This document shows positions 463 to 30,397 of a stretch of 32,000 bases of DNA, piece after piece (within the stretch, counting starts at the first letter, position 1; every line of letters starts with the position of its first letter). A program made the position numbers and the translations under genes. The notes below the pieces were generated by a model, which saw only the letters and a list, made by a program, of their open reading frames with translations, made no database searches and was not told the origin of the DNA. Origin of the DNA: Candidatus Iainarchaeum sp. (GTDB lineage: Archaea > Iainarchaeota > Iainarchaeia > Iainarchaeales > JACQJH01); the NCBI GenBank assembly GCA_016205145.1, contig JACQJH010000002.1, positions 480,001 through 512,000 of the forward strand. Reading direction: 5' to 3'.

Positions 463-490
463 CCGCCACAACTTGTTATCATGAAAATAA

Positions 491-548
491 AGCAGATGGG
501 TATTGCAACGGCAATACCCGTCGTCGCTCCACGCAGCCGAAACTGCGT
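491..548 (+). repeat. Modular hairpin repeat unit (linker gcagatgg, H1, linker cgtcgtcg-ctcc, H2)
   Basis: H1 is GGGTATTGC aacg GCAATACCC (498-519). H2 is ACGCAG ccgaaa CTGCGT (531-548). The same linkers and H1 recur at 13056-13090 and 30270-30358, and H2 recurs at 6568-6585 and 30363-30380. Confidence 0.85.
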
Positions 549-3224: not shown

Positions 3225-3280
3225 AGCCGGTTTCGTCCGGCTGGTTCGACGGCAGGTATTGCTTACGCAATACCTGCAAG
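3225..3280 (-). repeat. Modular hairpin repeat unit, inverse orientation (H1 plus H3)
   Basis: On the plus strand: AGCCGG tttcgt CCGGCT (3225-3242) and CAGGTATTGC ttac GCAATACCTG (3253-3276). The reverse complement of 3225-3250 is identical over 26 nt to 13087-13112. Confidence 0.85.
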
Positions 3281-3328
3281 CATTAAAGATTTCGGGGGTT
3301 TGCAGGGGGTGAAACTCCGGCGGAAGCT

Positions 3329-3395
3329 GGGAAAGAAAAAATAAAAGAAAAAGAAAAGAAAAAAAAGAAAGGAAAAAGGGAAACAAGGTTTCCCC
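3329..3395 (-). terminator. Hairpin plus long multi-oligo(T) terminator of the S-layer-like gene
   Basis: In minus sense, 12 nt after the stop comes GGGAAAC ctt GTTTCCC (3378-3394). An approx 50-nt almost pure pyrimidine tract follows, with runs of T5, T8, T4, T5, T4 and T6. Confidence 0.6.
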
Positions 3396-6242: not shown

Positions 6243-6525
6243 ACAATCTTACGAAGGATATTGTATGTATGAATAAAAAACAAGCCCGGCAACCCGCCCC
6301 CAAAACCACTGAAGGCAAAGGTCAGTCAGACCATTCAATACTTATCAAGTCAACTTATTTAAATACCTTTCCGTCCCAAAAAAAAGCTTAAAAAGCGCTT
6401 ATTTTGGGAAAACAAGCCCAAAATTTACTGCTTTTGCAGAAGACCTGTTCGTCAATTTACGAACCATGTACCAGCAGGGACTGGCCTCTCGCACACCCAC
6501 TGACCCCCGAAATCGTTAATACGCC

Positions 6526-6586
6526 TACTCGGCGTATTGCGCTAGCAATACGCCTTGGTTTCGCTCCGCGCAGCCGAAACTGCGCC
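6526..6586 (+). repeat. Modular hairpin repeat unit (linker tactcgg, H1, linker ccttggtttcg-ctcc, H2)
   Basis: GGCGTATTGC gcta GCAATACGCC (6531-6554). GCGCAG ccgaaa CTGCGC (6568-6585) ends 2 nt from the stop codon complement at 6588-6590. Confidence 0.85.
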
Positions 6587-7235: not shown

Positions 7236-7258
7236 AATTGAGTTTGGGCGGCAAAATG

Positions 7259-7266
7259 TTTTAAAA
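7259..7266 (-). promoter_or_regulatory. TATA-like box (TTTTAAAA) for the wHTH gene, leaderless geometry
   Basis: 23 nt separate the box from ATG 7235. Confidence 0.4.
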
Positions 7267-7267
7267 C

Positions 7268-7565
7268 GCAGGGGCTTTCGCCCCTTGCACGCTCCCAAAA
7301 ACAACCTGGCTTACTCGGCTTATTGCAATAGCAACAAGCCTTGGTTTCGGACCCGGCGTGCGAGCAAAAGCGAACGCAGGGATTGCACCCCTTGCAAACC
7401 CCGAAAGCTTTAACGGAATACTCGGCATATTGCGTAGCAATATGCCTTGGTTTCGGCACACGCGATCGAAAACGCGTCCGGACGAAACCGGCTCCGAGCA
7501 AAGCGAGGCGGCGCTATGCGAGCAAAGCGAGCATAGTGCGTCGGCACACCCGCTCGAAAGCGGGT
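7268..7565. repeat. Approx 300-nt array of at least 8 GC-rich hairpin modules
   Basis: H6 7268-7288. tactcgg-H1 7312-7340. H6-like 7376-7395. tactcgg-H1 7419-7446. ACGCG..CGCGT 7460-7477. Truncated H3 7478-7493. GCGCTATGC..GCATAGTGC 7511-7539. ACCCGCT cgaa AGCGGGT 7548-7565. The motif gcgagcaaa(a)gcga occurs three times. Confidence 0.85.
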
Positions 7566-7574
7566 TGGAAAAGC

Positions 7575-7582
7575 AATAAATA
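7575..7582 (+). promoter_or_regulatory. TATA-like box (AATAAATA) for the small membrane protein gene
   Basis: 22 nt upstream of ATG 7605. Confidence 0.4.
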
Positions 7583-7604
7583 CTTTGCCGCACAATTCTT
7601 TTGC

Positions 7605-10116: not shown

Positions 10117-10884
10117 TCACGCCCTCTTGAACTCAAAGCTGCCGTTGGGTTTCACAGCCGACTCGATTGCCGAAGACACCTGCTTCAATGCGTGCTCGGA
10201 AACCTTGAAATCATGCGACGTAATCTTCACGGAATACTTGCCGCCGCCCGAATAAAAGAGTTCGACCTGCACGCCTTTCGGGGAAGCGGACTCGCCTTTC
10301 AGCATCGCATTCCTGACGACGCTCACGCCGTCAGAATCAAAGCTGTGCAAAACAAAAAATCCGCCGACCGACTTTTTCGGAATCTCAATGCTTTTTTTGA
10401 CAAGCTCGACAAACTGCTTGCGCACCGATGAATCGACCGATGACGCGGCTTCCTCGCCGTGAATCGCAATCTCAGGCATTGCGTCAAAAAAAGTGCCGTA
10501 CTCGGCTTCAAGGGGCTTGACGATTTTCAGCTGGGCGTCGGCAATGGAAATCCCCGCCAGCCTTGCAAACTGCTCGAGGAGCTTTGCAGACCTTTTCTCC
10601 TGCTTCACGGATTCGATTTTCTGCCTCTGCTGTTCAGTTGAAACCTTTGCGAACGACAATTCGACCTGGCCTTCTACCTTGCCGCGCCCCATGACCTTTG
10701 CAGCGCGCACCTGGCCTTCCTTGACAAAATTGCGGATATTCTTAATCCAGCTCGTGGCAACCTGGGAAATGTGCACAAAGCCCTCTATGCCGGGATACTC
10801 TTCGAGTTCCACCATCACGCCGAAGTTCATTACCTTGCGGATCTTGCAGACGACTATTTCGTTGACTTCAGGCATTTTCGGCAT
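10117..10884 (-). CDS. eif2a: Translation initiation factor aIF2 alpha subunit
   Basis: N-terminal S1 domain (VVCKIRKVMNFGVMVELEEYPGIEGFVHISQVA). Length and domain order match aIF2-alpha. A second ATG lies at 10875. Confidence 0.8.
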   Translation of the reverse strand: MPKMPEVNEIVVCKIRKVMNFGVMVELEEYPGIEGFVHISQVATSWIKNIRNFVKEGQVRAAKVMGRGKVEGQVELSFAKVSTEQQRQKIESVKQEKRSAKLLEQFARLAGISIADAQLKIVKPLEAEYGTFFDAMPEIAIHGEEAASSVDSSVRKQFVELVKKSIEIPKKSVGGFFVLHSFDSDGVSVVRNAMLKGESASPKGVQVELFYSGGGKYSVKITSHDFKVSEHALKQVSSAIESAVKPNGSFEFKRA

Positions 10885-10936
10885 AAAAACCAGAACAAAA
10901 GAATTGCAACAAAAACAGTATTTTAAAGGAATATGT

Positions 10937-11139
10937 AGCCGTCACGCCCGGCTAGTGCGAACTAAGGCTTATCATGGCAAAATCGCGATTTTGCCATGTG
11001 CCCGGAATCTTGGGATTCCGGTGCATGCCGCTGCAATAAGCCGAGTAAGCTTTTTGCAAATAAGTGGCGTTGCAACAGCAACGCCACGCAAGGGGCGTGC
11101 GAGGGGCGAAAGCCCCTGCCTGCGCGCTGTTGCGCGTGA
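10937..11139. repeat. Approx 200-nt nested array of hairpin modules
   Basis: H3-like 10937-10953. Outer stem GGCTTAT (10966-10972) pairs with ATAAGCC (11036-11042) and encloses the 26-nt palindrome H5 (10973-10998) and H4 (11002-11021). Inverse tactcgg at 11041-11047. H1 11064-11087. Inverse H6 11099-11119. Inverse H7 11120-11138. Confidence 0.85.
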
Positions 11140-11183
11140 CAAACCAAACAATAGATGAGACTCGCGAAGGAAGTAGCAAGATT

Positions 11184-11741
11184 TTATTTTTCAACTACAA
11201 GCTTTCTTGACATAAGCAGTTCCGCGATCTTCTGCGGCAGTGGAATGACTTCGCCCTTCGAAAACGGCCCGTATTCCTTCATGTCGGTTCCGACAAAAGC
11301 AGGCACGTCCTTCAGCACGGAAAACAGTTCGCCGGAAGACGCCTCGGCAATGGAAAAGCTTTGGGTTTCACCGTCAAACAGTTCGGCAAGCGACTTCCTG
11401 TGCTCCGCCATCAGTTTGAGCAGTTCAATGAACGTCGCCTTTTCTTCGGAGGACACTTTCTGCAGGGCAACATCCCCGGTCCTTGACGCCACAAGCGCGC
11501 GGTTCAGGAGCTTTTTTTCGCGCAAGGCAAAGATTTCCTGCACCATTTTCTTGAGGTTCGAAAAATTCCTCGCCTTTGAAGTGGAAATGTCGCGCAAAGA
11601 CTTCAGGTATTCCTCTTTTTCGGCTTTCATGAAGGCGTTGAGCTTTTCGAAGAAATCGTCGTCAACTTCGACAAGCTTGGAAGTGTTCTTTTCAAGCCTG
11701 TAAATGCGCCTAAGCTCGTCGTATGAAACGTTCAAAGCCAA
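11184..11741 (-). CDS. gins51: GINS subunit, Gins51 (Gins15)-type
   Basis: 185 aa. N-terminus SYDELRRIYRLEK and C-terminus VLKDVPAFVGTDMKEYGPFSKGEVIPLPQKIAELL match the archaeal Gins51 pattern. Lies directly downstream of priS. Apparent TTG start with a TATA-like box at 11769-11776. Confidence 0.6.
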   Translation of the reverse strand: MALNVSYDELRRIYRLEKNTSKLVEVDDDFFEKLNAFMKAEKEEYLKSLRDISTSKARNFSNLKKMVQEIFALREKKLLNRALVASRTGDVALQKVSSEEKATFIELLKLMAEHRKSLAELFDGETQSFSIAEASSGELFSVLKDVPAFVGTDMKEYGPFSKGEVIPLPQKIAELLMSRKLVVEK

Positions 11742-11789: not shown

Positions 11790-13001
11790 CTAAACAGGCT
11801 TTGCCCTGCCCGAAGCGACCAAAAATATCGCAGCGGACAGCGGAAGTTCCGTTTCAGCCTTGCGCATTTCCGCAAACTTTTCCCCTTTCAGGGAAAATTC
11901 CGGCGAAAAATCCACGAAAACCTTGGCGGGCTCGCGCCCGAAAACAACCGCGTCGGAGAAAGGGTCAAACTGTTTCAGCGCATCCAATGAAACTCTTTTC
12001 GCCTGGAAGCCCGTGCCGCCATGCAAAGTGTCGGGAACGCGCAGGATCTTGCTCTTGTCAAGCGAAGTCTGCCTGTCGACATTGAATGATTCGCACAAAA
12101 CCGTGAAATCGAAAATCTTTGGCCAGAAATCCTTTGTGTTCCTGCCCGAAGGCGAAACGAGGATGCCTTGCGAAAGCTTTTCAAGAAAATTGTCCCTTCC
12201 AGCCAAAAGTTCTTCGGCTTTTTTCTTGCTTATCCCGCCGATTGCCGCGACCTTTTCCGCGTTGCCCGCGCTGAAAAGGCTTTCAATGCCGGACAGGATT
12301 TTTTTCTGCCAGCCGAGGGCAATCTTCTTTTGCGGGCAATGGAATGCCTTGCCGATGCGCACAAATCCAAGTGCAGTGAGGTTGACGGAATGGCCAGTTA
12401 GATAGTCGAGCAGTTCTATGCGCCCGGCATGCGGCAAAGCGTTGATTTCCTCGCCGCGCAAATGCACGTGGTATCCGGCATTGCCCGAGAAGTTCACGTC
12501 AAAGCCTGAAAACCCGAAGTCTTCCTCAAGCGCTTTGACAAGGCGAAAAACCTGGCTTTTGGTTTCGCCAAGGCATTCGTTGCAGAACATCTGCTTTACA
12601 GAGACAGGCGAACCGCAGGACGTGCAGTTCTCCACTTTTCCCGGGCCGCTGGAAAAACATTTCGGGCACAGCCAATAGTCATGGCGCTGCTTGCAGTCTG
12701 TCTGAATGTCGTCGGCGTCGAATTCATAGACGAGGTCGGCTGAAATGAAGCCTTTTGCTTCAATCGGCCTCGCCGCCGGCATTTTGTATTTTGCGCCCGA
12801 ATAGGATACGAACAGCGGCACTTCTGAGCGGAGGAAAGCGTTGAATGCGTCATGGCTTGGAAATGCAAGGTGCCTCTGCGAAATCTTCAGGCCGAAAATG
12901 CCGCAGCCGAACTCCCTTTTCTCCGGTTCGGGCGGCTGGGAAACGAAATTTTTTTCGTAAAACTGCCTGAAATGCTGTTTCAGGAAATCCTCGGCACGCA
13001 T
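11790..13001 (-). CDS. priS: DNA primase small (catalytic) subunit PriS
   Basis: Has KREFG, DLVYEFDADD and FSGNAGYHVHL catalytic motifs, plus a Cys-rich zinc module (CPKC...CTSC). Confidence 0.85.
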   Translation of the reverse strand: MRAEDFLKQHFRQFYEKNFVSQPPEPEKREFGCGIFGLKISQRHLAFPSHDAFNAFLRSEVPLFVSYSGAKYKMPAARPIEAKGFISADLVYEFDADDIQTDCKQRHDYWLCPKCFSSGPGKVENCTSCGSPVSVKQMFCNECLGETKSQVFRLVKALEEDFGFSGFDVNFSGNAGYHVHLRGEEINALPHAGRIELLDYLTGHSVNLTALGFVRIGKAFHCPQKKIALGWQKKILSGIESLFSAGNAEKVAAIGGISKKKAEELLAGRDNFLEKLSQGILVSPSGRNTKDFWPKIFDFTVLCESFNVDRQTSLDKSKILRVPDTLHGGTGFQAKRVSLDALKQFDPFSDAVVFGREPAKVFVDFSPEFSLKGEKFAEMRKAETELPLSAAIFLVASGRAKPV

Positions 13002-13025
13002 GCAAGCATTCTTTGCCTAAAAGTA

Positions 13026-13033
13026 ATAAAAAA
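13026..13033 (-). promoter_or_regulatory. TATA-like box (TTTTATTA) for priS, leaderless geometry
   Basis: 24 nt upstream of ATG 13001. Confidence 0.4.
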
Positions 13034-13055
13034 GGTGCCGGGCACCCAACACAAA

Positions 13056-13112
13056 GCAGATGGGTATTGCAATGGCAATACCCGTCGTCGAACCAGCCGG
13101 ACGAAACCGGCT
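13056..13112 (+). repeat. Modular hairpin repeat unit (linker gcagatgg, H1, linker cgtcgtcg-aacc, H3)
   Basis: GGGTATTGC aatg GCAATACCC (13062-13083). AGCCGG acgaaa CCGGCT (13095-13112) ends immediately before the stop codon complement at 13113-13115. Confidence 0.85.
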
Positions 13113-14998: not shown

Positions 14999-15724
14999 TC
15001 AGAGTATCATGTGCGCCAGGTAAAAGTTTATTTCGGAGTCGCCGATCGGATACGAGATTTTCATCGGCGAATCGGTCTTGAGCTCAAGCAGGATTTTTTT
15101 GTCCGCGTCGGCCTCGCGCACGATGTTCTGCAAAAAATTCAGGGAATACTTGCTTTGGGTGTCGGCCGAGCTTTTCACGGAAACGCTTTTCCCGTTCGAC
15201 TGGTCGCTGCGCATAGTTCCCTGGCTGCCCTTCGCCTCGATTGAAAGCTTGCCTTTTTTCACGTTTATGACGGCTGCGCTGCCGAACAAGGCAGCGTCTT
15301 TCAGGACTTCCCTGAAAATGCGCGCATTGATCTCGATGTGCGAGTCGAAGCCCACCTGCGGAACCTTCGGCTCTTCCTCGGAAACGTCTATGAGCGGCAG
15401 GCTGAATTTTCTCACCAGGTCGCCTTCAAAGGTCAAAGCCATCTCGTTTTCCGTAAGGTCGAGAACCATCCTGTCGCCGGGCAGTGCGCGCAGCATTATT
15501 TTGGACAGCTCGGAAATGTCGACTCCTGCAAAAGCCGGCTCGACAGCATACCTGTCAAAAATCTTTTTGTCAAGGAAAAGGTCGACCAGCACAATCTGGC
15601 TTGGGTCGATTGCCCTGAACAAAACGCCCTTGTCGGAAAAATGGAAATTGCCCTCCGAAATGAACGATGAAATCGCCTGCACCGCCTTCTGCCACGAATC
15701 AAGCTTTTTGAGTTCAATCGCCAT
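14999..15724 (-). CDS. pcn: DNA polymerase sliding clamp PCNA, paralog A
   Basis: 241 aa. Has AIDPSQIVLVDL, VRKFSLPLIDVS and SKYSLNFLQNIV. The C-terminus FYLAHMIL is a variant of the usual LAPRI ending. Confidence 0.8.
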   Translation of the reverse strand: MAIELKKLDSWQKAVQAISSFISEGNFHFSDKGVLFRAIDPSQIVLVDLFLDKKIFDRYAVEPAFAGVDISELSKIMLRALPGDRMVLDLTENEMALTFEGDLVRKFSLPLIDVSEEEPKVPQVGFDSHIEINARIFREVLKDAALFGSAAVINVKKGKLSIEAKGSQGTMRSDQSNGKSVSVKSSADTQSKYSLNFLQNIVREADADKKILLELKTDSPMKISYPIGDSEINFYLAHMIL

Positions 15725-18601: not shown

Positions 18602-19453
18602 TCATGCGGGAACGGAAACGGCAAGGTTGTCTATGAGCCTTGTCTTTCCGATGCGGCACGCGCAAAGCAAAACAGCCCCGCCTCGGATTTCCTTCAGCTC
18701 CGACAAATCCTTGGCATCGCGCACGGCGAAATACTCGGGCTTTGCCAGCGGCTCTTTCCCAAAAAAGCCTTTTGCAAAACCTTCAACCTCTGCGGGGCTT
18801 TTTTCGCCCGCCAGAATTTTTTCCTTTCCAGCGTTGAGCGCGCGGAACAAAACAGTTGCCGCTTTCCTCTCCCGCGCATCCAGGCGCGCGTTCCTGCTCG
18901 AAAGTGCCAAACCGTCTTTTTCGCGCACTGTCGGGCACACGACAACCGTGACAGGCAGGCTATGCGCGCGGACCATTTCTTTGACAACCAAAAACTGCTG
19001 ATAATCCTTATGGCCGAAGTACGCCTTGCCCGGAGAAACAATTTCGAAAAGCCTTTTGACGACCGCGCACACGCCCGCAAAATGCCCCGGCCGGAATTTT
19101 CCCTCAAGCGTTTCCGCAACGGCGGGCGGCTTTACATCGGCATTGGTGCCGTGCGGATAGATTTCCTTTTCGGTTGGCGCGAAAACAAAATCAACTTTTT
19201 CCTTTTCCAGCAGGCCGAGGTCTCTTTGCAAATCGCGCGGATAATTTTTCAGATCGCTCTTGTCGTTGAACTGCATCGGATTCACAAAAATCGACACTAC
19301 GCAAAAATCGTTTTCCTGCCGGCATTTGCGCACCAATGACAAATGGCCTTCGTGCAAGGCGCCCATTGTGGGAACGAAGCCGACGCTTTTTCCCGGCTCA
19401 TTCAGACGGGCGGCAGCCGCACGCATTTCCTGCGCGGATTTTACGACCTGCAT
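18602..19453 (-). CDS. panC: Pantoate--beta-alanine ligase (pantothenate synthetase)
   Basis: Has FVPTMGALHEGHLSLV plus FVNPMQF and GHKDYQQ motifs. Confidence 0.85.
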   Translation of the reverse strand: MQVVKSAQEMRAAAARLNEPGKSVGFVPTMGALHEGHLSLVRKCRQENDFCVVSIFVNPMQFNDKSDLKNYPRDLQRDLGLLEKEKVDFVFAPTEKEIYPHGTNADVKPPAVAETLEGKFRPGHFAGVCAVVKRLFEIVSPGKAYFGHKDYQQFLVVKEMVRAHSLPVTVVVCPTVREKDGLALSSRNARLDARERKAATVLFRALNAGKEKILAGEKSPAEVEGFAKGFFGKEPLAKPEYFAVRDAKDLSELKEIRGGAVLLCACRIGKTRLIDNLAVSVPA

Positions 19454-19481
19454 GGAATAAAGCTTGCGGAAAAAGGATTTT

Positions 19482-20297
19482 TTAATAGCTGTATTTTTTG
19501 CTTGGAAATTTCCCGCTTTTTACCTGATTGCCGAATTTTTCCGCTGCGCCGGAAATCTTTCCCCCGAGGTTGTCGAACCGCTTCACGAATTTCGGCTGGA
19601 AATCCGGCAGCAGGCCGAGAATGTCGTGCAGCACCAAAACCTGTCCATCACAGTGCCTTCCCGCGCCGATGCCGATTGTCGGAATGGCAAGGCAGTTAGT
19701 GATTTTTTTTGCGAGGCCGGACGGAACGCATTCCAGAACAAGCGCGAAACAGCCTTCCCTTTCAAGGCAGAGCGCGTCCTGCATAATTTTTTCCGCTTCT
19801 TCGGCATTCCTGCCTTTCACGGAAAAGTTTTCCGCTGTCTGCGGAGTCAGGCCGAGATGGCCGATGACCGGAATGCCGGCATCGCGGATGGCTTTTGCTA
19901 TGCCATCGGAAAAGCCTTCAATTTTCACGCAATGGCAGCCTGCTTCCGAGAATTTTTTCGCGTTCTCGCCTGCAAGGTTTGAGTTCGTGAAAGAGCCGAA
20001 CGGCATGTCCCCGATCACAAAGGATTTTTTGCACGCCCTTGCGACAGCCGCGGAATGCCGGAGCATTGTTTCCATTGAAACCGTCGAGGTTTTCGGCTCG
20101 CCGTAAACCACGTTGTTCAGGGAATCTCCGACAAGCAGGGCGTCAACCTTCGCGTCGACAAGCCGTGCAAAGGCATGGTCGTAGCAGGCAAGCACGGAGA
20201 TTTTTTCGCCGGACTTCTTCATTTCGGCAAACTTTTCGGAAATGTGCATGAAAAGCTTGTGCTGGAACAATTTGAAAAAGCTATTTGTCCCGCTCAC
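19482..20297 (-). CDS. panB: 3-methyl-2-oxobutanoate hydroxymethyltransferase
   Basis: Has ISVLACYD...LLVGDSLNNVVYG...DMPFGS...VKIEG...GHLGLTPQ. GTG 20297 overlaps the PCNA-B stop (GTGA). The alternative start is ATG 20249. Confidence 0.85.
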   Translation of the reverse strand: MSGTNSFFKLFQHKLFMHISEKFAEMKKSGEKISVLACYDHAFARLVDAKVDALLVGDSLNNVVYGEPKTSTVSMETMLRHSAAVARACKKSFVIGDMPFGSFTNSNLAGENAKKFSEAGCHCVKIEGFSDGIAKAIRDAGIPVIGHLGLTPQTAENFSVKGRNAEEAEKIMQDALCLEREGCFALVLECVPSGLAKKITNCLAIPTIGIGAGRHCDGQVLVLHDILGLLPDFQPKFVKRFDNLGGKISGAAEKFGNQVKSGKFPSKKYSY

Positions 20298-21040
20298 TCT
20301 GATTCTATGCGCGGCGCAAGGAAATAGGTTATGTCGGCCTTGCCGACCTTGTAGTTGACCTGGATGGGCGCGTTTGTTTTGAGGAAAACCTTGACTTCGG
20401 TGTCAGAGGAAGCGGTTTTGAGCATGTCGGAAAGGTAGTCCAACGGGAACATGCTTTTAGCCTCGTCTTTCACTTTCATTTCGGTTATCGCCTTGTCGTC
20501 CTTCTGGGTTTCGCTGTTCAGTTCGCCCTTGCTTGAATGCGCCCTGACAAAAAACTTTTTGTTCTCGATGCCCAACGAAACGTGCGTTGAAATGAGCGCG
20601 GAATCCTTGAGCGCGTCCTGCAGGACCGAAGCCTTCATTGAAAGTTCCGCGTCGAAGTCTATGCGCGGACTCGGCAATTCGGAAGCGGAAATGTCTATCA
20701 AAGGCATGGAAAATTTTCTCACGGAAGAGCCCTTGAACGTGACGCTCAGATAGTTCTTGTCGTCCTCCAATGCCAGGTGCAGTTCGTCGCCGGCCTTCGA
20801 CCTGGACATTATCTGGCCCAGGTAATCGAGGTCCAGGCCGAGCTTGGTTTTGCCGTCCAAATCGAATTTTTTGAAGGAATCCTTTTTGAGCGAGAAGTCG
20901 ACCATTGAAATCTGGCTTGGGTCGGTCGCCCTCAATGACAAACCATTGGCGTCGAAGATGAATTCGGCCTCGTCGATCAGGACCGCGATTGAGTCGATGC
21001 ATTTCTTGAAATCGTCGGCCTTTTCGAGCACTACGTCCAT
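20294..21040 (-). CDS. pcn: DNA polymerase sliding clamp PCNA, paralog B
   Basis: 248 aa. Has ATDPSQISMVDF, VRKFSMPLIDIS, FPLDYLSDMLK and a canonical YFLAPRIE C-terminus. Confidence 0.8.
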   Translation of the reverse strand: MDVVLEKADDFKKCIDSIAVLIDEAEFIFDANGLSLRATDPSQISMVDFSLKKDSFKKFDLDGKTKLGLDLDYLGQIMSRSKAGDELHLALEDDKNYLSVTFKGSSVRKFSMPLIDISASELPSPRIDFDAELSMKASVLQDALKDSALISTHVSLGIENKKFFVRAHSSKGELNSETQKDDKAITEMKVKDEAKSMFPLDYLSDMLKTASSDTEVKVFLKTNAPIQVNYKVGKADITYFLAPRIESE

Positions 21041-21070: not shown

Positions 21071-21116
21071 AAAGAACTTAACCTCGTGGCAAAAATCTAC
21101 CCCGCAGGCACATGCA

Positions 21117-21222
21117 TACTCGGCGTGCCGCACAGCGGCACGCCTTGGCTCCGAACCAGCCGCAGTTGCGAAGCCAGCGCCATGCAATGCATGGTGCGCG
21201 TACCAGCCGGACGAGACGGCTG
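21117..21222 (+). repeat. Hairpin module array (tactcgg-H1 variant, H8, H3 variant)
   Basis: GGCGTGCCGC aca GCGGCACGCC (21122-21144). CCATGCA a TGCATGG (21180-21194). CAGCCG gacgaga CGGCTG (21204-21222). Lies 14 nt from the stop at 21237. Confidence 0.8.
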
Positions 21223-26261: not shown

Positions 26262-26296
26262 TTCTTTCACATTGCCTGAAATTTAATACAAAAAAA

Positions 26297-26407
26297 GCAG
26301 ACGGGTATCGGGCAAGCGGAATCGTCCAACCAATCACGCGCAACAGCGCGCAGCTCCATGCGAATGAAATGAGCATGGGGCGTCGGACCAGCCGGACGAA
26401 ATCGGCT
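26297..26407 (+). repeat. Hairpin module array (gcagacgg linker, H7, H8, H3)
   Basis: CGCGC aaca GCGCG (26337-26350). CCATGC..GCATGG (26356-26378). AGCCGG acgaaa TCGGCT (26390-26407) overlaps the lonB stop complement by 1 nt. An A7 run lies at 26290-26296. Confidence 0.8.
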
Positions 26408-30209: not shown

Positions 30210-30397
30210 GCAGATGGTTACTGGGCGAATGCGACGCACCGGAACCCCAAGATTCTGGACACGTCCAAAGCAGATGGGTATTGCATCAGCAATGCCCCAG
30301 AATCCTAAGATTCTGGGCACGTCGCAAAATCCAAGATTTTGCGAAGTACCCGTCGTCGCTCCACGCAGCCGAAACTGCGTCCGGACGGAATCACCGG
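30210..30397 (+). repeat. Approx 190-nt composite hairpin array with an apparently interrupted H1-H2 unit
   Basis: gcagatgg occurs twice (30210-30217, 30270-30277). H4-like 30239-30258. H1 30276-30297. H4 30296-30317. H5 30323-30343. ccgtcgtcg linker (30349-30358 region). H2 30363-30380. H3 variant 30381-30397. Confidence 0.85.

Follow-up and report, generated by a model that had tools for sequence, protein, structure and literature searches.

The present study analyzes a 32,000-nt stretch of DNA (the window) from a DPANN archaeon (Diapherotrites/Iainarchaeota), whose proteins carry locus tags HY394_057xx-059xx of a metagenome-assembled genome, and within it a unit of two hairpins, H4 and H5, that is found inside other hairpins. 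This unit of 53-54 nt is probably a transposase-free palindromic mobile cassette that targets the palindromic units of mosaics resembling bacterial interspersed mosaic elements (BIMEs), and it behaves as one of the smallest mobile DNA units known. The cassette is a discrete insertion-deletion unit with exact ends, present or absent at one orthologous site; the equivalent position is used in two unrelated host families, here called module A and module B, the target appears to be a place within a hairpin, not a fixed sequence, and Watson-Crick pairing is retained in every helix. Arrays of palindromic units occupy nine spacers of the window. The nested site at 11 kb lies in a 299-nt spacer (10885-11183) between the genes for GINS51 (11184-11741, minus strand) and aIF2-alpha (10117-10884, minus strand), and is made up of the following features.

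10973-11025, minus strand: H4-H5 cassette of subtype I, 53 nt, delimited by a single-gap alignment; profile match at E = 6e-18.
11026-11050, minus strand: 5' part of the split host, a module B, with head GCTTACTC, left arm GGCTTAT and mini-hairpin TGC-AGCG-GCA, recognized by a 19-nt match and by alignment.
10955-10972, minus strand: 3' part of the split host, with right arm ATAAGCC and tail TTAGTTCGCAC, where intact modules carry CCTTGGTTTCGGCAC.
10937-11130, minus strand: the whole mosaic array of the GINS-aIF2alpha spacer.

Minus-strand positions 11050-11032 (GCTTACTCGGCTTATTGCA) are identical over 19 nt to 7309-7327, as the initial annotation of this sequence had pointed out, and the match is not fortuitous: two matches were found in the window against 0.00 expected (100 shuffles, at most 2 mismatches), and TACTCGG occurs 7 times against 0.88 expected. 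Nor is the distal arm there by coincidence, since the tail TTAGTTCGCAC that follows it matches the module tail TTGGTTTCGGCAC, which marks the distal arm as truly the other half of a module. The H4 hairpin at 11002-11021 and the perfect 26-nt palindrome H5 at 10973-10998 are as that annotation described them, its outer arms GGCTTAT (11042-11036, minus) and ATAAGCC (10972-10966, minus) are paired in the predicted minimum-energy fold, and its multi-branch structure is predicted to be a four-way junction with zero unpaired junction bases. It correctly placed H4-H5 inside a TACTCGG-type hairpin, but not in the loop as it proposed, because the host loop AGCG and the GCA of the right arm precede H4-H5, which therefore lies in the 3' arm. 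The split host runs GCTTACTC-GGCTTAT-TGC-AGCG-GCA, then 53 nt, then ATAAGCC-TTAG; MAFFT alignment with four uninterrupted modules leaves a single clean 53-column gap, and deleting 11025-10973 restores a perfect 10-bp hairpin, GGCTTATTGC-AGCG-GCAATAAGCC. Coincidence, or an artefact of assembling repeat-rich spacers, has a negligible chance of accounting for this arrangement. Short-read assemblies do break at the arrays, with same-strain Logan short-read contigs (L129, L133 and L134; such numbers denote contigs throughout) ending inside H5 at window positions 30336 and 30351, but the same architecture is present in independent NCBI, Logan, ENA and JGI assemblies, the 19-mer match had an expectation of 0.00, and the covariation described below exceeds that of all shuffles. 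The breaking of independent short-read assemblies by the arrays implies that many copies exist in the genome.

The cassette corresponds exactly to two back-to-back hairpins without single-stranded ends. The subtype I sequence reads TGC-A(bulge)-CCGGAATC-CCAA-GATTCCGG-GCA, then CATGGCAAAATC-GC-GATTTTGCCATG; in general form the first hairpin, TGC-N-CC(R)GAATC-loop-GATTC(Y)GG-GCA, consists of H4 with TGC/GCA added to its stem, the variable N forming a 1-nt bulge, and the second is H5, of 10-13 bp. The cassette ends (TGCNCC... and ...ATG, ACG or AAG) form no terminal inverted repeats. There are two subtypes, I at window 11 kb, L128 and L002/L136, and II at window 30 kb, L125, L126 and L137. The three subtype I copies differ by 1-2 nt among 53 and sit in hosts with the loops AGCG, GATTA and AATCA; the cassettes are more uniform than their hosts. 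The predicted fold of the nested site has four helices, namely an outer helix of 7 bp, a 3-bp mini-hairpin formed by the host top, H4 and H5, and the four-way junction forms on either strand, as RNA or as DNA. The 11-kb region is predicted to fold at -43.1 kcal/mol as RNA (z = -6.0) and at -30.1 and -30.5 kcal/mol as DNA (z to -6.8), with 0 of 200 shuffles folding as well in either case.

A census was made with a hand-aligned nhmmer profile, as MAFFT put the cassette length difference outside the H5 loop. Within the 110,232 nt searched (the window and 22 related contigs), full-length cassettes occur at 7 distinct loci: the window at 11 kb and at 30 kb, L002 (same locus as L136), L125, L126 (same locus as L127), L128 and L137. 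All seven are inside split host hairpins, five of module B and two of module A, and none is free-standing; one truncated cassette (30236-30265) was recovered by the same search. In 7/7 the cassette occupies the 3' arm of the host, 3 nt (GCA^) or 4 nt (GCAA^, GTGA^) past the loop, in one orientation relative to the host, and the host tops that carry it have the form TTGC-loop-GCAA or TCAC-loop-GTGA. The 30-kb unit (30293-30346) has the compensated stem changes that the initial annotation listed; it was said to be in the opposite orientation, which is so for the window strand, but relative to its own host it is oriented in the same way as the 11-kb copy. As to the short constant flank raised there as a possible mark of a target site, position and orientation are constant and no target duplication accompanies the cassette, but the 5' flank sequence varies, the seven flanks being ..GGCA, ..AGCA, ..AGCA, ..GGCA, ..GTGA, ..GCAA and ..GCAA. 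Candidate target-site duplications, CATG...CATG or CCC...CCC, were rejected, as removing one copy fails to restore the host.

A metagenome scan with a context-blind cassette pattern returned four contigs, all with cassettes inside split module B, and further copies (L002/L136 and L137) came from contigs carrying orthologues of window genes. There was also an identical copy of the 30-kb site in another assembly. A scan of genome contigs with a 14-base pattern gave 120 single chance matches in unrelated bacteria (L005-L124). Viral contigs, plasmids and phages contained no match to the element, and no known virus or plasmid is its source. There are six empty module B copies, of which the window holds these.

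6523-6584, plus strand: empty module B, GGCGTATTGC-GCTA-GCAATACGCC, with tail TTGGTTTCG and CGCAG hairpin.
7309-7349, plus strand: empty module B, GGCTTATTGC-AATA-GCAACAAGCC, whose left half is the 19-nt match.
7416-7456, plus strand: empty module B, GGCATATTGC-GTA-GCAATATGCC.
21114-21150, plus strand: empty module B variant, GGCGTGCCGC-ACA-GCGGCACGCC; the sister-species spacer is without the whole array.

Removing the cassette from L125 restores GGTCTTTCAC-AACA-GTGAAAGACC, and removing it from L128 restores the 10-bp stem GGCGTATTGC/GCAATACGCC with loop AATCA. Filled and empty hosts have the same stems, CTTATTGC being found at window 11 kb and at 7312 and CGTATTGC in L128, L002 and at 6526, and in L125 the top TTCAC-AACA-GTGAA is common to a filled and an empty module 90 nt apart. 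Presence of the cassette is thus independent of the host variant.

The second host family, module A, has the form AAAGCAG-GATGGGTATTGC-loop-GCAATACCCGTC-GTCG followed by a small hairpin, and provides both the other filled site of the window and the vacant one that could be compared with a filled orthologue.

30293-30346, plus strand: H4-H5 cassette of subtype II, 54 nt, inside module A; profile match at E = 6.5e-19.
30267-30379, plus strand: filled module A, which aligns with the empty modules at 489-545 and 13053-13112 except for the cassette.
13053-13112, plus strand: empty module A, with the vacant site between 13078 and 13079 (GCAA^TACCC) and BLAST breakpoints at 13079.
489-545, plus strand: empty module A followed by a CGCAG hairpin.

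The filled module at 30 kb reads AAAGCAG GATGGGTA TTGC-ATCA-GCAA ^cassette^ TACCCGTC GTCG, then hairpin CTCCACGCAGCCGAAACTGCG. Its cassette is at GCAA^TACCC in the 3' arm, just beyond the loop, and deleting it restores GCAATACCCGTC. Synteny links contig L137 (ENA ERZ4903072) to window 11.8-18.5 kb, at an overall identity of about 88%. The module A at 13053-13112, empty in the window and uninterrupted there over 13056-13086, is filled in L137, where it lies in the spacer between a small membrane-protein gene and PriS, has the loop AATG and is followed by a CCGG hairpin. The L137 cassette of 54 nt lies exactly at GCAA^TACCC: alignment of window 13053-13112 with L137:5395-5605 shows one clean 54-column gap, with host, loop and both flanks matching, and the boundary shows no target duplication, a single T being the only ambiguity. 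As a separate observation, the 100-nt bin 13000-13100, which contains this module, is 99% identical between the window and L137 against 88% overall, and a few coding bins also reach 98-99%; this could reflect constraint or recent exchange.

The reading offered by the initial annotation, that one palindromic element was inserted into another, is therefore supported by the census, by the same-site comparison in relatives and by the flank checks, with the amendments that the site is in the arm rather than the loop and that there are two host families; in addition, some nested copies may have spread as whole composites and not by separate insertions. Several points weigh against a mobile cassette. 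Only one clean empty/filled pair was found, in which insertion and exact excision are indistinguishable, and the census covers 110 kb of the lineage rather than the whole genome. No transposase or recombinase gene was found in the window or in the related contigs fetched. The 5' flanks GCA, GCAA and GTGA amount to no single fixed tetranucleotide, and the cassette ends coincide with the feet of the hairpins. Finally, the tail CCTTAG is present in 4/5 filled module B copies (window 10962-10965, L002, L125 and L128) and in 0/6 empty ones, which have CCTTGG or CCTTGA (window copies compared at 6555, 7341, 7447 and 21146); together with the paralogous composites found at two loci, this link makes it probable that some filled modules were spread as complete composites. 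The A of CCTTAG would also turn a T-G pair into T-A and possibly extend the outer helix by ACT/AGT.

An alternative explanation could be that no dedicated enzyme is involved and that gene conversion, or a switch of replication template at stalled hairpins, copies the cassette from one paralogous module to another, its position simply reproducing the arrangement in the donor. Modules A and B have a common hairpin top, TATTGC...GCAAT-AC, that could provide microhomology, the swapping of whole arrays among related populations implies frequent recombination in spacers, and the link of CCTTAG with filled modules suggests that a transferred tract may reach beyond the cassette. This would not easily account for the L137 host, whose loop AATG is that of the empty window copy and not the ATCA of the only other known filled module A, so that a conversion tract would have had only 4 nt of homology on its left; nor for the L125 host (GTGA^AAGACC), which has almost no microhomology to other hosts. 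Copying of this kind is on balance unlikely. Slippage, as a deletion between direct repeats, was rejected because the boundaries are without the direct repeats that it requires.

The pairing pattern points to DNA palindromes rather than to an RNA selected on one strand. In six distinct copies, the pairing holds in 96.8% of cells; both partners have changed in 7 pairs, which are distributed among all four helices, and 0/500 shuffles reach this count. Stem pairs are Watson-Crick in 193/200 (96.5%), with 2 G-T and 4 A-C, and neither strand folds better than the other. Some modules are sense to the genes, some antisense, and others sit between genes that diverge or converge; their orientation is unrelated to gene direction. 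Watson-Crick stems without a G-U preference, together with gene-independent orientation, indicate DNA rather than structured RNA. Of the modules in the window 9 are on the plus and 2 on the minus strand, and over 32 kb this may represent a strand (replication) bias. The nested form could nonetheless be a structured RNA with a function, kept by selection for its structure; it would be the four-helix junction variant in a family of hairpin RNAs, and H4-H5 would be an expansion segment that not all members have. The very stable predicted fold, the compensatory changes in all four helices and the GNRA-like loops common in neighbouring hairpins would all be expected of such an RNA. We regard this as very improbable, since G-U pairs (2) are no commoner than A-C (4) and neither strand is favoured, modules take every orientation to genes, and the arrays are dispensable, being absent from the same spacers of relatives. 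Rfam gave 0 matches at the gathering score (best E = 0.64 in a permissive scan) and ARAGORN 0 tRNA genes. Particular RNA explanations were also rejected: a tRNA-like cloverleaf, with no ARAGORN hit and arm sizes that are wrong; an intrinsic terminator, with T runs absent and mixed orientation; and an archaeal bulge-helix-bulge intron. In such an intron both boundaries lie in 3-nt bulges flanking a 4-bp helix; those of the cassette lie at a fully paired four-way junction without bulges.

If the cassette is mobile, a trans-acting enzyme that recognizes folded single-stranded (hairpin) DNA would insert it, precisely excise it, or both. The best precedent may be the peel-and-paste pathway of IS200/IS605-type Y1/HUH transposases and its terminal-only derivatives, the palindrome-associated transposable elements (PATEs), a parallel that we draw tentatively and that is based on hairpin ends, absence of target duplication, exact excision and the existence of very short non-coding archaeal derivatives. 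IS200/IS605 elements normally need a fixed tetranucleotide, and their left cleavage site is separated from the hairpin by about 19 nt; the varied flanks and the ends at hairpin feet noted above have to be set against this. The main alternative enzyme would be a recombinase that exchanges strands at the four-way junction and releases a 53-nt dumbbell circle. More broadly, the cassette and its hosts might be substrates of an undescribed recombination system specific for DNA structure and not for sequence, which we consider doubtful. Such a system would recognize the hairpin top, with strand exchange taking place at a constant distance from the loop. At a filled site a single folded strand would then form a four-way junction of Holliday type, which on being resolved would give off the 53-nt dumbbell circle and leave the host exactly resealed, and the intergenic mosaics would have been built by repeated hairpin-into-hairpin insertion.

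Among known systems, the cassette is most like the palindromic repeats without a transposase that are found in Haloquadratum. In PATEs the palindromes are near-terminal and both inverted terminal repeats and target duplication are absent, and terminal-only PATEs of 52 bp occur as strain-specific insertions in Haloquadratum walsbyi (Dyall-Smith et al. 2011, PMC3119063). A second kind of repeat, SMR-A, inserts into the palindromes of PATEs and of IS605-type elements, and its mode of mobilisation was called enigmatic by its describers (PMC3119063). Like the cassette, the Haloquadratum repeats are archaeal, non-coding, too short for a transposase and without target duplication, in otherwise contiguous flanks, and SMR-A likewise is a palindromic guest inside the palindrome of another repeat. 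The 52-bp PATE is essentially a fusion of two near-terminal palindromes of similar sequence, and H4 and H5 of the cassette have common AATC...GATT stem tops; the cassette also has the PATE features of small size (53-54 nt), a palindrome at each end (H4 at 5', H5 at 3') and a seamless empty site. PATEs have in addition a fixed targeting sequence of 4-6 nt and a longer 5' lead before the palindrome, whereas the cassette ends at the hairpin feet and has varied flanks; the sequences are unrelated, the cassette comes from another phylum (DPANN Diapherotrites/Iainarchaeota), and the hosts here are units like those of repetitive extragenic palindromic sequences (REPs) and BIMEs, not recognizable IS605 ends. 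With no parent element and no fixed targeting sequence known, the cassette cannot yet be called a PATE. Nor is it an SMR-A, which is about 110 bp long with inverted terminal repeats, because it is half that size and without them. [quoted passage not shown]

The hosts find their counterpart in Bacteria. Insertion sequences are known to target REPs (Tobes and Pareja 2006, PMC1525189), with IS1397 targeting BIME palindromic units and ISPa11, ISPpu9/10, ISPsy8 and ISRm19/22 targeting REPs (PMC1525189). Like the hosts described here, bacterial REPs and BIMEs are intergenic palindromic mosaics with a conserved single-stranded head (TACTC or GCAG in the present case) that serve as specific insertion targets. 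Their guests, however, are full transposase-encoding insertion sequences in Bacteria, while the cassette is non-coding and archaeal, and REP stems are conserved in sequence within a genome, while the host stems here vary with full compensation. Cyanobacterial small dispersed repeats reportedly are also nested in one another, and are said to be bacterial repeats of about 21-27 nt with another target and unrelated in sequence to the cassette. They are reported as mobile, with SDR5 using the HIP1 palindrome as its insertion site (PMC5861425). MITEs have been reported as dense in some DPANN genomes (PMC11602168); like the cassette they are small non-autonomous intergenic repeats in reduced genomes. 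The literature searched contained nothing specific on palindromic repeats in DPANN or Diapherotrites.

Comparison with contigs about 90% identical in DNA (L001, L002, L136 and L140) indicated that whole arrays turn over between populations. Where the window has its nested composite, in the GINS-aIF2alpha spacer, L002 carries another array, L136 an unrelated spacer of about 115 nt without any array, and L001 other genes. Spacer 7236-7600 has two empty module B copies in the window and, in L002 and L136, a nested composite paralogous to the 11-kb array; an inversion swapping the 7.3-kb and 11-kb arrays was considered and rejected, since the gene order of L002 and L136 is unchanged and the copies are paralogous, not identical. 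In L140 the place of the 26.3-kb array is taken by 71 bases of unrelated sequence. A sister lineage that is further removed (nucleotide identity about 79%; L003/L004 for 11 kb) has short, array-free spacers at 11 kb and 21 kb. Whole spacers are swapped for unrelated sequence at exact gene boundaries (10885-11183 and 26262-26406 in the window; L136:3531-3650, L140:540-610 and L001:1-1190). These swaps are not gain or loss of single modules and resemble the 'deletion-coupled insertions' of Haloquadratum.

Other palindromic units accompany the modules. The array at 10937-11130 consists, in order, of a GCGCGC hairpin, a AGGGGCTTTCGCCCCT hairpin, a GTGGCGTTGC-TGTT-GCAACGCCAC hairpin, the nested module B and an AGCCG...CGGCT hairpin. 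The third of these (11064-11087) sits between TTGC...TTGC direct repeats and has a paralogue at L002:3650-3672 in which two pairs differ, both fully compensated; this hairpin may likewise have been inserted, in its case with a short duplication of the target. Two further features were found in the window.

3228-3280, minus strand: empty module A variant, GCAGGTATTGC-GTAA-GCAATACCTGC, with CCGG hairpin.
30236-30265, plus strand: truncated cassette (profile positions 2-31, the H4 hairpin plus CACGTC); profile match at E = 1e-5.

The truncated cassette is inside a degenerate module-A-like host (30210-30266) and directly adjoins the next, filled module A, an arrangement that suggests either a further layer of nesting or a deletion. 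Conserved heads of the host arrays are GCTTACTC in module B and AAAGCAG in module A. A recurrent GCGAGC-AAA-GCGAGC (7357-7372, 7496-7509 and 7519-7533, also 11104-11115 and 21172-21178) occupies the loops of different hairpins; it is a direct repeat able to pair through tandem G-A. The arrays also contain the motifs GCGAAAGC and GCGAAGC, which are known as very stable DNA mini-hairpins. Genes of the window include those for aIF2-alpha, GINS51, PriS, PriL, two PCNA paralogs, LonB, a PAC2 proteasome chaperone and an S-layer protein. Among named organisms, the closest relatives of its aIF2-alpha likewise belong to Diapherotrites. The two PCNA paralogs (14999-15724 and 20294-21040) and the bacterial-type pantothenate genes panC and panB (18602-20297) are found here in a small DPANN genome, and an A/G-only purine tract of about 65 nt (3320-3385) lies in the spacer upstream of the S-layer gene stop codon.

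Cassette and hosts alike behave like selfish DNA that the spacers tolerate, and need bring the cell no benefit; the expanded spacers are unexpected in a DPANN archaeon with a small genome. If the interpretation as a mobile cassette is correct, there is a two-hairpin mobile unit of 53-54 nt with exact ends, whose target is defined by structure, at a constant distance from a hairpin loop, and of which one empty and one filled site form a natural pair; were structure-specific recombination to be responsible, it would be close to the smallest size at which DNA could move as an autonomous unit. The cassette would then offer a small substrate with which to look for the enzyme that mobilizes palindromic repeats without a transposase of their own. 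REP/BIME-like mosaics are not confined to Bacteria, and they turn over fast among populations that are about 90% identical. For practical work, the arrays break short-read assemblies, and they could serve to mark populations apart.

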